DNA of 64,000 nt from Candidatus Poribacteria bacterium (GCA_963665235.2 CAXXLX010000001.1:2496001-2560000), one strand, 5' to 3'; numbered from the stretch's first letter, positions 23,975 through 26,596 are shown. Notes: generated from the letters alone by a model not told the origin. Program-made: numbers and translations.

Positions 23975-24580
23975 AACGTGAGCTTGATAATAAATATCCG
24001 TTTGCTCTAAACCTTTTTCATCGCGAAAAAAGCGGTATACTTGTAGCATAAACTTCCTAGTTTGTGCTGTTTTTTGCTAAAACTACCACAGAACGCTCTA
24101 GGTCAAAACTTTTTTCAAACTTGCATTATGTTACATCTTTTTTGTCTGAATGCACGTCGCATTTGGGCGAGTACGCCGCAAATCGCGGATTATCGCGGAG
24201 GACACGGATTTCGCGGATTTTAAGCTGTGTATGCCTCGAGGTTTTGTGATTAAGAGGGGGTGTTTTTTCAGTAGTGACGGACAGTTGGGTTGTCCGATGC
24301 CTTTCAATTCTTCTTTATCACGCGAGCTTGATAATAAATGCCCGTTCGCGCCAAACGCTTTTCATGGTAAAAAAAAGCGGTATACTTGTAGCATAAACTT
24401 CCTAGTTTGTGCCGTCTTCGCTTGTAGCATAAACTTCCTAGTTTGTGCTGTCTTCGCTTGTAGCATAAACTTCCTAGTTTGTGCCGTCTTCGCTTGTAGC
24501 ATAAACTTCCTAGTTTGTGCCGTCTTTTGATAAAACTACCGCAGAACACCGCAGGTGAAAACTTTTTTCAAACTCACGTC
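23975..24580. mobile_element. Two MITE-like family D copies carrying 1 and 4 GTAG-REP units (36-bp period)
   Basis: Ends ACG(T/C)GAGCTTGATAATAAA ... TTTTTCAAACTCACGT; the right end also occurs near 13590 and 46850. Confidence 0.65.
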
Positions 24581-24869
24581 TTTATACATAAAATTCTCTT
24601 TATACATAAAATTCTTCTAAAGTGAACGTGTTAGTCTACTGCCCGTGAAAATTTCTGAATGTATCACGAATTTTCATGGCTATAGATTCAATGGTTCCGA
24701 TATCAAGGGTCATTATATCAGTCTCTTCCAACTCAGTCCTGACGCTTTTTGACATCATGCCGTAGATGAAATTATGAGATGTGAACCAGTTATCTATTTC
24801 CATCTCAGGAATTTCGCGTTCAACTTCTACTACCCTCATCAAAATCTTCGGTGTGGAGACCCCGTTGCT

Positions 24870-25973
24870 TTAGCACGGGGAGGAAACACCGCTCCTATAT
24901 TGAAAGTTCAAGCGTGTGAGGACTTGAAAATCTGTGCGTTTCGCACCCGTTGTGAGGCGTTGACCTTCTAAGCTATAGATAGAAAACACCCCTTTTGCAT
25001 TAATACCCGTAATAGGATGTCCTCGGTGGGACCTCGGACGTGTGATCCCGTGTTTGCTGTGCTTTATCACCGTGTTTTTCACAAGTCCGTTGCCTAACAC
25101 AGTCCCGCCATATCTTGACCGTATTCCGCCCTTTGCTGGTTGTTCTCGGTGCAAGTTACGCCTTGCTACGGGTATCGGGGATATGCAAAACACGGCTGTA
25201 TTGTCGGGTTTGAGTGCCATCGCTTTCTTTGTGTCACCATTGACAACCGAATGTGCCATCACCCAACTATCAACGCAGTGTGCATAGAAGTCATCAGAGA
25301 GTTTGTCTTGGCTCTTCTCTAATCCTAATGCCTTCCTCCGCGCGGAAGTCCACCTGCCTTTATAGCAAAACACATTTCCAACGCCATAGCGTGCTATCAA
25401 CTCAGAGACAAACCAGCGTTTACCAACCTCCAACGGACTAAAAGCTGTGTTCCATCGCTTCTTACCCGGTTTTGTTCTTGCCTTGATGTCCTCCACACAG
25501 ATTTTTGTGACAGGATACAAGTCAGACAACCAATCCAGGATGCGGAGTTTCCAATCCCAACGGGCCCGGGTGCCTGCGGGGAGTTTCTGTCTGTTCGCAC
25601 CTTTGTTGGTGCGGTTCTTGCGGTTGGGACACTTCCGAGAACGTCCGAGGTCCCACCGAGGACATCCTCTCCCTCTGCGGAGTTCACGTCTTTTCTCAAC
25701 CTTCTTTCCAACTTTGTTATGTGCATCTGCCTGCACGTTCAGATACGTATGCGTCGCAGATTTGACGGTAAATCCCTCTTTCTTACTTCCAGGATCCACA
25801 CCGACAACAATGTCTTGTGTTTCTCTATCACTCGGTTCTTTGTTGAGACGGACACAATAGACACCGTTGTTCCAATAAGGTGTTGCTTCACCGCGTTTGA
25901 CAAGTTTCCTTGCACGTGCAGCATGCATCGGCATCAGCTGTTGTCCGTCGTTTGTTTTGACTGGCACAAACAT
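24870..25973 (-). CDS. isrB: IsrB-like RNA-guided nickase (RRXRR/PLMP, split RuvC, no HNH)
   Basis: QLMPMHAARARKL; RuvC-I VGVDPGSK; Arg-rich bridge helix; RuvC-II VEDI; RuvC-III HCVDS; 367 aa with no HNH motif. Confidence 0.85.
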   Translation of the reverse strand: MFVPVKTNDGQQLMPMHAARARKLVKRGEATPYWNNGVYCVRLNKEPSDRETQDIVVGVDPGSKKEGFTVKSATHTYLNVQADAHNKVGKKVEKRRELRRGRGCPRWDLGRSRKCPNRKNRTNKGANRQKLPAGTRARWDWKLRILDWLSDLYPVTKICVEDIKARTKPGKKRWNTAFSPLEVGKRWFVSELIARYGVGNVFCYKGRWTSARRKALGLEKSQDKLSDDFYAHCVDSWVMAHSVVNGDTKKAMALKPDNTAVFCISPIPVARRNLHREQPAKGGIRSRYGGTVLGNGLVKNTVIKHSKHGITRPRSHRGHPITGINAKGVFSIYSLEGQRLTTGAKRTDFQVLTRLNFQYRSGVSSPC

Positions 25974-25979
25974 AAGTTT

Positions 25980-26249
25980 GTTTTCTCCTTACGGAAGTAA
26001 AACGGATGTGAGAGAAAACGGATGACCGTAGGTCATTTGTTTTCCCTCTTTCCTTCCGTCGGGTATATATTGCCCCATCCAGATCAGGGGTTCGTAGTGG
26101 AATCAGACTTGGGGAGCATCCGAAACATACTTTAGGCTGCCACACCCAGAACCCCCGATATATTACTGTAGAAAGTAGTTTAACTTGTGGATTGACTGCT
26201 TGGCAGGCAGTTCGCACAAGCCCCCACGCTTTAGCGGGGGGTTACTGAC
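25980..26249 (-). ncRNA. Putative omega-RNA (HEARO-like) scaffold
   Basis: About 270 nt between the element end and isrB; contains the GTCA-led hairpin and GGATGCTCCCCAAGTCTG. 3' boundary approximate. Confidence 0.75.
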
Positions 26250-26596
26250 TCTAACCATGTATTCATCAAGTTTCATGGGTAGAGCCTGCATGAGTGTAAA
26301 GTGATAGCGTATGTATTTGATTTCGACTAATGACCAATCTATATCAAAACCTTTTGATTCTTCTTTCAAAACTTCTTCAAATTTTTCCTCAAACTTAACT
26401 TCCATGATTACCTCCCCTTATTCATTATTTTGCTGCTAACCCGCCTACTACGTGGACAGTTTTTACCGTGCAGCACTGGCATCCGTCGCCAGCAGTCGCG
26501 CTTAATTAACGCGATAATTTAATTTTACACTAGGAGTGTAACACATATTTTGCCACTTGTCAAGTGAAAATAGGTTCGCTCCACCCTTGCGCCGGG

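Follow-up and report, generated by a model that had tools for sequence, protein, structure and literature searches.

A probable SDR-like insertion element of 24 bp nested in IsrB and other IS200/IS605-type elements of a Candidatus Poribacteria relative

Introduction

To our knowledge, the small dispersed repeats (SDRs) of the Nostocaceae are essentially the sole precedent for mobile DNA of less than about 30 bp, and their mechanism has been open since 2008. In that year Elhai et al. reportedly described SDR1–8 of Nostoc and Anabaena, with units of 21–27 nt. Here we describe a 24-bp sequence (the 24-mer) that is present twice, in opposite orientations, inside the gene of an IsrB-like protein in a stretch of 64,000 nucleotides (GCA_963665235.2, CAXXLX010000001.1:2496001–2560000; hereafter the window, with positions counted from its first letter). 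The 24-mer is very probably a non-coding, SDR-like insertion element of very small size, mobile now or recently in this Poribacteria-related genome.

In the passage of PMC2884548 that mentions them, SDRs are repeats of some 20 bp, sometimes tandem and possibly mobile. The part of PMC5861425 that deals with the highly iterated palindrome HIP1 allows that SDR5 may insert into this palindrome and notes that among HIP1-rich cyanobacteria none but the Nostocaceae showed an SDR-like repeat. Small dispersed repeats are also mentioned, in passages of PMC3116915 and PMC6006769, beside the systems of repetitive extragenic palindromic (REP) sequences and REP-associated tyrosine transposases (RAYTs).

The genome is that of a sponge symbiont related to Candidatus Poribacteria, assembled to 5.31 Mb in four contigs, and the window is a part of its 4.36-Mb contig C1 (C1:2496001–2560000). 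GroEL encoded in the window is 82–86% identical to that of Candidatus Poribacteria metagenome-assembled genomes and, among the matches listed, at most 64% identical to anything else. The initial annotation of the window, made from the sequence alone, had likened the repeat to the SDRs of cyanobacteria; the analogy is apt, but the host, as judged from GroEL, is a relative of the Poribacteria and not a cyanobacterium.

The 24-mer and its copies in the genome

The 24-mer, GGATGTCCTCGGTGGGACCTCGGA, lies at window positions 25015–25038 on the plus strand and at 25644–25667 on the minus strand. It belongs to a slightly longer 28-mer, AGGATGTCCTCGGTGGGACCTCGGACGT (25014–25041), the exact reverse complement of which is found at 25641–25668, and both copies fall within a single open reading frame (ORF) of 367 aa (24870–25973, minus strand), so the identical pair in opposite orientations that the initial annotation had reported inside isrB is indeed there. 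The first copy is antisense to IsrB and adds the residues PRSHRGHP near the start of the domain interacting with the target-adjacent motif (TAM), and the second is in the sense orientation and adds GCPRWDLG within the arginine-rich bridge helix. In the translation of the ORF both inserts are in frame and stop-free. Deletion of the 24 bp leaves A^CGT (^ marks the junction here and below) and restores RRELRRGRRSRKC and ...GITRITG, as had been proposed; without both inserts the protein has 343 aa. The restored RRELRRGRRSRKC is identical to the gapped stretch in six of 25 homologues, the other 19 differing by one to three residues.

Within the window, where up to three mismatches were allowed, these two were the only matches to the 24-mer, and 100 dinucleotide shuffles gave a mean of 0.00 and a maximum of 0. 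Genome-wide, at no more than one mismatch, the 24-mer has 20 copies (18 exact and two with one mismatch; nine forward and 11 reverse) against none for the reversed-pattern control. An A precedes 19 of the 20 copies, the exception being the last unit of a tandem array, and CGT follows 19, the exception being a diverged fragment at C2:317262. By our own reading none of the six frames of the 24-mer has a stop (GCPRWDLG, DVLGGTS, MSSVGPR, SEVPPRTS, PRSHRGH and RGPTEDI). Tabulation of the flanks, suggested in the initial annotation as a check, placed the copies in five unrelated contexts, so the sequence is not confined to the two sites of the window. A longer parent element was considered and rejected: half-sites of 12 to 15 nt were found only inside full copies or the array, and other one-mismatch matches were scattered.

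Insertion contexts and target site

The five flank contexts are two sites in IsrB, a 478-bp element, the 3' end of a TnpB-type element and a host gene. Eleven copies occupy the C-terminal site of IsrB (context A), four a 478-bp non-autonomous IS200/IS605-like element (context B) and three the TnpB-type 3' end (context C), where one has expanded in place to an array. A single copy is inserted in frame in a conserved single-copy host gene at C1:727688 (context D). For the bridge-helix site of IsrB (context E) only the window copy was counted, a version with a 3-nt deletion being present in the pseudogene C1:3814700. Four of the five contexts are thus inside IS200/IS605-type elements, in line with the earlier suggestion that the repeat parasitizes another mobile element, and three of the five are in-frame insertions into ORFs. 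With its length of 24 nt and all six frames open the unit is also frame-preserving, as had been claimed, and can therefore survive inside ORFs as an 8-aa insert.

Only an A on the left and CGT(T) on the right are common to the five contexts, the left boundary being base-identical in all of them, and this insertion at A^CGT bears out the view of the unit as sequence-targeted. Since A is present at both ends, the position is ambiguous by 1 nt and the insertion can equally be described as lying just 3' of 5'-ACGT-3' on the complementary strand. On that strand the unit always comes after 5'-ACGT-3', and the two bases ahead of this tetranucleotide are GA (three contexts), AA or AC (one context each). 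In each of the five contexts ACGT is reconstituted. Target duplication does not exceed the ambiguous 1–2 nt, only A (GA in two of the five contexts) being common to both junctions. There are no terminal inverted repeats, the ends being GGATG... and ...TCGGA. By our reading the 24-mer is sense to transcription in four of the five contexts, a proportion that is not significant.

The element of context B has sharp ends and end hairpins of the IS200/IS605 type, with CTTTAG loops. Rfam gave no match at E ≤ 0.1 for contexts B and C, so their labelling as guide-RNA ends rests on adjoining TnpB zinc-ribbon matches and the IS200/IS605-type end hairpins. The 478-bp element, found at C1:1772413–1772891 and in eight other copies, has a left-end hairpin, the right end ...GTATGTCAA^ and an internal promoter-like site TTGACT-17-TATAAT; the sequence immediately downstream of a 400-aa TnpB family matches the final ~45 nt of the element, which may be a free-standing guide-RNA element. 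The array of context C (C1:892828–893141) is built of about 16 units of the inner 18–19 nt of the 24-mer (GATGTCCTCGGTGGGACC) and has the normal junctions AAAA^ and ^CGTTC. In context D the frame reads 935 aa in one translation and the open frame 1415 aa; from repeats in the translation we read the product as a putative beta-propeller-repeat protein.

Empty sites and recency of insertion

Empty-site alleles of the 24-mer exist, as mobility in the sense of the initial annotation would lead one to expect: empty paralogues or orthologues were found for four of the five contexts, and for context C no exact empty counterpart was found. At the bridge-helix site, 20 of the 22 complete or almost complete IsrB copies in the genome are empty, the two closest reading GAGA^CGTTC with nothing else changed, and the only filled ones are the window copy and the pseudogene C1:3814700. 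At the C-terminal site, 11 of the 22 copies have the complete 24-mer, one a degenerate remnant and 10 are empty. The 11 aligned sequences of context B include four filled and six empty ones and one with an 11-nt remnant; along 243 bp of flank, two of the empty sequences do not differ from a filled copy (100% identity). In the gene of context D, all eight aligned orthologues show one clean 24-nt gap. Its matches in 20 of the 23 relatives that have one span 1803 nt versus 1827 nt here, over the same 609 aa; the other three span 1797–1800 nt, with slightly shorter query cover.

The remnant of context B is on contig C3 (34,019 bp), which is a ~99% identical alternative version of C1:999349–1032654. 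At this locus C1 has the full 24-mer with one substitution and C3 the 11-nt remnant. As C3 is an alternative version of the C1 region, the full and the decayed copy are alleles of one locus. Contig C4 is likewise an alternative version of C1:3774884–3794300.

Each of the 25 IsrB homologues drawn from further genomes of the family is gapped by 8 aa at both sites, so the residues are not native to the protein. Similarly, among the best 120 matches in a collection of 5.8 billion proteins, 118 are without the bridge-helix insert and 116 without the C-terminal one; inserts are present in the window protein, in two paralogues from the same contig and in one 97%-identical protein from a 36.5-kb contig. 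The run data from Logan, in which four runs were compared (X1, X6 and X7 among them), are short contigs, broken at repeats. The flanks of context B are reached from the 24-mer by branching contigs in X1, and in X7, recorded as an RNA run of another study, an IsrB C-terminal copy is covered by contigs with six differences. Because the 24-mer is thus found in independent contigs of other runs in the same contexts, it is not an assembly artefact. An origin of the repeats as native IsrB sequence or as an artefact of assembly or adapters has only one point in its favour, the metagenome-type assembly of the genome and its contamination of 5.65%; the gapped homologues, the independent contigs and the exact, in-frame insertion points have already refuted it, and its probability is practically nil. 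An X7 contig without the bridge-helix 24 nt and without a further insert of 68 bp (see below) differs in 14 other letters, and may be from a paralogue or another strain. The 600-bp inversion that the pair could allow, according to the initial annotation, is so far without support: the sister copy C1:3814700 is colinear, and among the short, repeat-broken run contigs no strand-changing joint was listed.

The 11 filled copies of the IsrB C-terminal site have no polymorphic position among the 24 insert columns, against 31 of the 96 flank columns, taken from 48 nt to each side (Fisher one-sided p = 3e-4). On the basis of the local flanks the filled state is polyphyletic, comprising at least four sub-lineages in which an empty copy is the nearest or second-nearest relative at 0.97–0.98 identity, and the filled copies of context B fall into two sub-types. 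Occupation of the same site in diverged sub-lineages by letter-perfect units, in both the IsrB C-terminal site and the 478-bp element, argues for recent arrival, either by repeated insertion or by gene conversion. The window copy and C1:3814700 share both inserts as well as the 68-bp insert at different loci, which indicates that the 24-mer also travels passively with its host insertion sequence (IS). Its copies thus increase secondarily, along with those of the insertion sequences that carry it.

Little weighs against mobility as such, apart from two observations. All filled IsrB C-terminal sites read CGT^ATT and the empties CGCCTT, a pattern that fits gene conversion equally: either only ACGT-bearing alleles were targeted and all were hit, or conversion over short tracts carried the neighbouring bases along. 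Furthermore, exact searches of 185,579 species genomes and of JGI metagenome contigs gave no match, although near-identical records may be outside these scans, and none of 40 relatives had the 24-mer at up to two mismatches; its spread is therefore documented in one lineage only so far. An explanation by recombination would need one or a few original insertions, spread later by recombination or gene conversion between paralogous insertion sequences and by transposition of the host IS, with no machinery of the unit's own. This would agree with the fact that the repeated elements in which 15 of the 20 copies lie are in any case subject to movement or recombination, with the mosaic structure of the IsrB copies, in which N- and C-terminal types are reassorted, and with the CGT^ATT of all filled C-terminal sites, as co-conversion would yield. 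However, the A and CGT(T) shared by the five contexts are far too little homology for recombination and the left boundary is nevertheless base-identical, and context D is a single-copy host gene without a paralogue. We consider spread by recombination alone improbable, and retain insertion of an SDR-like element as the explanation of the five contexts.

IsrB and its insertion sequence

The ORF hosting both inserts matches Pfam RRXRR (PF14239; E 4.8e-26, 92 bits) and the solved IsrB structure 8DMB (E 4.4e-22, query residues 3–309). By sequence comparison it has the features of an IsrB, namely a PLMP/RRXRR N-terminus, RuvC and bridge helix, no HNH domain, a predicted TAM-interacting domain and, upstream, a weakly matching omega RNA. 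When aligned to 8DMB, the gap of the bridge-helix insert falls within the RRxRR stretch. An AlphaFold2 model was mediocre (mean predicted local distance difference test, pLDDT, 64.3; predicted template modelling score, pTM, 0.58), and only the placement of loops versus helices was read from it. The helix ends in the model at residue 101, directly ahead of the bridge-helix insert, and the C-terminal insert forms a low-confidence loop (313–324) between the strands 309–313 and 330–333 of the C-terminal domain. As given in the relevant part of PMC9581776, the IsrB bridge helix comprises residues 92–112 and the substitution R104A lowers nicking. The bridge-helix insert probably cripples or inactivates this IsrB copy. 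The C-terminal insert would seem to be tolerated or neutral; the frame is uninterrupted in nine of the 11 copies that have it.

The whole IS extends over 1410 bp (24840–26249, minus strand), as delimited by the limits of homology between paralogues, and consists of a left-end hairpin, an omega-RNA region, IsrB and a right-end hairpin. In the seven copies of the IS homology starts with GTCA(A/G)TAACCCCC and ends with ...GATTTTG(ATGA), six of them ending ...TTTTGATGA and the seventh ...TTTTGAGGA. In X1 and in X6, one contig each runs straight from 24839 to 26250; this empty site agrees with the ends from the paralogue alignment and shows the IS to be polymorphic. On the IsrB strand, the end of the IS is abutted by ATGA (24836–24839, minus strand), likely both the TAM and the transposase target; the TAM of DtIsrB is given as NTGA/TTGA in the part of PMC9581776 concerned, and the ATGA flank would fit NTGA. 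The IS splits a small ORF on the minus strand, the pieces of which are at 26163–26405 and 24636–24842.

A candidate omega RNA lies upstream of IsrB (26063–26249, minus strand), with a weak match to Rfam HEARO (RF02033) over the full model length (27.1 bits, E 0.0078; the gathering score, 83, is far higher). Between the omega-RNA region and the start of IsrB there is a hairpin-forming insert of 68 bp (25991–26058, minus strand), distinct from the 24-mer. Among the seven aligned copies it is present only in the window copy and in C1:3814700, a sister copy colinear with that of the window. Logan contigs in all four runs compared skip it exactly (25990 to 26059), and elsewhere in the genome it has only partial relatives, by the IsrB copy C1:3599021 and the TnpB-type end C2:751088.

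Proposed mechanism

Insertion beside a fixed tetranucleotide without duplication is the signature of IS200/IS605 elements. The genome has 13 matches to PF01797 (Y1), 12 of them over the family cut-off, with eight full TnpA matches and a RAYT-like ORF among the 13, and 42 TnpB matches, and by a rough estimate TnpB and IsrB elements make up about 2% of it. The combination of four of five contexts in so small a part of the genome with an IS200/IS605-like insertion signature and the presence of Y1 genes leads us to favour, with low confidence, mobilization in trans by a Y1/HUH enzyme. The unit would move as single-stranded DNA (ssDNA) and integrate beside ACGT in single-stranded targets, which could be replication forks or the ssDNA intermediates of IS200/IS605 elements; integration into the latter would explain the four contexts inside such elements. 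GC skew in this genome was too weak and asymmetric for replication strands to be assigned. As the catalyst we tentatively suggest a Y1/HUH ssDNA transposase acting in trans, possibly the TnpA of an IS200/IS605 element or a RAYT-like protein. It is conceivable, though rather unlikely, that the 24-mer represents the smallest self-contained transposable unit seen so far, a one-hairpin ssDNA substrate with its own cleavage-site guide, moved in trans by Y1/HUH and preferring the ssDNA intermediates of IS200/IS605-OMEGA elements.

Several observations speak against a Y1/HUH mechanism. The sole hairpin of the 24-mer, GTCC-TC-GGT-GGG-ACC-TC-GGAC, has a folding energy of only -3.6 to -3.8 kcal/mol (z +0.15 to -1.05 versus shuffles), and it is one hairpin, not two as at the ends of IS200/IS605 elements. 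Inspection by eye showed no GTAG in the 24-mer on either strand. Among resident IS families, those that could be delimited abut TCAT/ATGA, ATCAA or ...TGA and none ACGT, and none of the 20 copies flanks a Y1 gene. The genome has 17,745 ACGT sites, only a handful of which are occupied by the 24-mer. A hairpin common to the targets was considered and rejected, as the folds of the five reconstructed empty sites share no structure.

Alternatively, the unit could be written in from a template, from a small RNA that is reverse-transcribed or by annealing at the replication fork in the manner of an oligonucleotide, maybe as a device of the host or a rival for disabling OMEGA nucleases and guide RNAs. 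Four of the five contexts are of OMEGA type (the IsrB ORF twice and two guide-RNA-bearing ends) and four have the sense orientation, and the array of about 16 units is reminiscent of a short template that is copied repeatedly. We nevertheless regard templated write-in as very improbable: no template locus or longer parent was found in the genome, no reverse transcriptase was linked to any copy (no search was aimed at one), the insertion in context D is outside mobile elements and the bias in orientation does not reach significance.

Comparison with described systems

The SDR families of the Nostocaceae are the closest precedent of the 24-mer. The two have in common the size class of the unit (24 nt here) and tens of dispersed copies (20 here), presence and absence between otherwise identical or conserved sequences (here in four of the five contexts), and nesting in other repeats (here the IsrB IS, the 478-bp element and the TnpB-type end). 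As far as the sources cited in the Introduction cover these traits, occasional tandem amplification (here C1:892828–893141) and a target with a short palindrome, HIP1 for SDR5 and ACGT here, are also shared. The differences include the host phylum, SDR1–8 being families of heterocystous cyanobacteria and the present host a Poribacteria relative, and the target, which is A^CGT and not GCGATCGC. The sequence, too, is presumably a different one. Furthermore, the 24-mer differs in its strong tie to IS200/IS605-OMEGA elements and in that three of its five contexts are in-frame insertions into ORFs. A literature search found no report of SDR-like elements in Poribacteria; the 24-mer is among the smallest insertion elements seen and is the first of the SDR-like kind that we find outside the cyanobacteria.

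REP sequences and their doublets (REPINs), mobilized by RAYTs, are also short (~20–35 nt), hairpin-bearing, multi-copy units for which Y1/HUH movement in trans has been proposed, and a RAYT-like ORF between REP-like arrays is present in this genome. The 24-mer, however, lacks the 5' GTAG that precedes an imperfect palindrome in REPs, and has only a weak hairpin. It is found inside ORFs and structured RNAs, not in intergenic regions, and forms no inverted doublets, and it is not beside the RAYT-like ORF (C1:831796–832125), which adjoins another unit of 33–34 bp. That ORF encodes a divergent Y1/HUH protein of 160 aa and has REP-like arrays on both sides (C1:831100–833100), resembling a RAYT/REPtron locus.

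With the derivatives of IS200/IS605 elements (palindrome-associated transposable elements, PATEs) the 24-mer shares insertion next to a set tetranucleotide that leaves no duplication; Y1 TnpA genes are numerous in the genome, and the 24-mer is nested in elements of the IS200/IS605 type. Known derivatives, however, keep both subterminal hairpins and are at least 100 bp long, the 478-bp element being such a case here, and the 24-mer, with a single weak hairpin at most, is one-twentieth of that size. The resident elements have stems of 7–8 bp with CTTTAG loops, and the 24-mer is without a pair of subterminal hairpins. From miniature inverted-repeat transposable elements (MITEs) of the DDE type it differs in having neither terminal inverted repeats nor a target-site duplication of 2 bp or more. 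Rickettsia palindromic elements (RPEs) are said to have been described by Ogata et al. in 2000 as selfish repeats inserted in frame into protein genes. They resemble the 24-mer as selfish repeats that persist in ORFs by an open frame and add a peptide segment, but they are ~100–150 bp long, palindromic and unlinked to a tetranucleotide target or to IS200/IS605 elements.

Other small repeats in the genome

In a self-comparison of the genome, 65 loci had indels of 15–60 nt between paralogous stretches and, tandem register shifts aside, the 24-mer was the sole recurring family among them. A k-mer census for isolated short repeats gave no clear families, and the one 24-nt candidate was rejected as a conserved motif of a paralogous gene family. 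The self-comparison also brought up a second small dispersed family of ~29 nt (AGTATTCGGGCAAGCAGCCCGCTCCTCA[A/T]), for example at C1:558326–559053, C1:203446 and C2:178298. Its 21-nt core has 44 copies at up to one mismatch in at least six flank contexts, and it replaces the loop of a GTCCCA..GGAC hairpin in REP-like units, adjacent units being empty.

Tandem arrays of 33–37-bp REP-like units (GTAG and palindrome) are very common in the genome, one of them being at 24400–24525 of the window. A 24-nt unit, GGACTAGGGGTTGT(T/G/C)GAAACATCT, has 59–67 copies, with a 50-nt period in several arrays (C1:807898–808500, 1089710–1089903 and 3327755–3327906). Well over 100 copies, with 90–100% identity and often adjoining tandem arrays, were found of an element of ~125 bp (for example C1:1771993–1772119).

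Biological significance

The 24-mer offers clean pairs of filled and empty sites, a defined target (A^CGT), a host in a phylum different from that of the SDRs and, in its strong tie to IS200/IS605-OMEGA elements, a lead to one particular class of enzymes, testable in vitro. For users of OMEGA nucleases, the two sites flag natural positions in IsrB that are insertion-tolerant (the loop in the TAM-interacting domain) and probably insertion-intolerant (the bridge helix). If the proposed movement by Y1/HUH in trans is true, the SDR phenomenon would, together with the 29-nt family, gain a concrete and testable enzymology outside the cyanobacteria, and the 24-mer would be a hyper-parasite of RNA-guided transposons, able to write 8-residue peptides into host proteins. 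IsrB and TnpB elements and their guide-RNA regions can themselves be parasitized, and host proteins can gain inserts of 8 aa.

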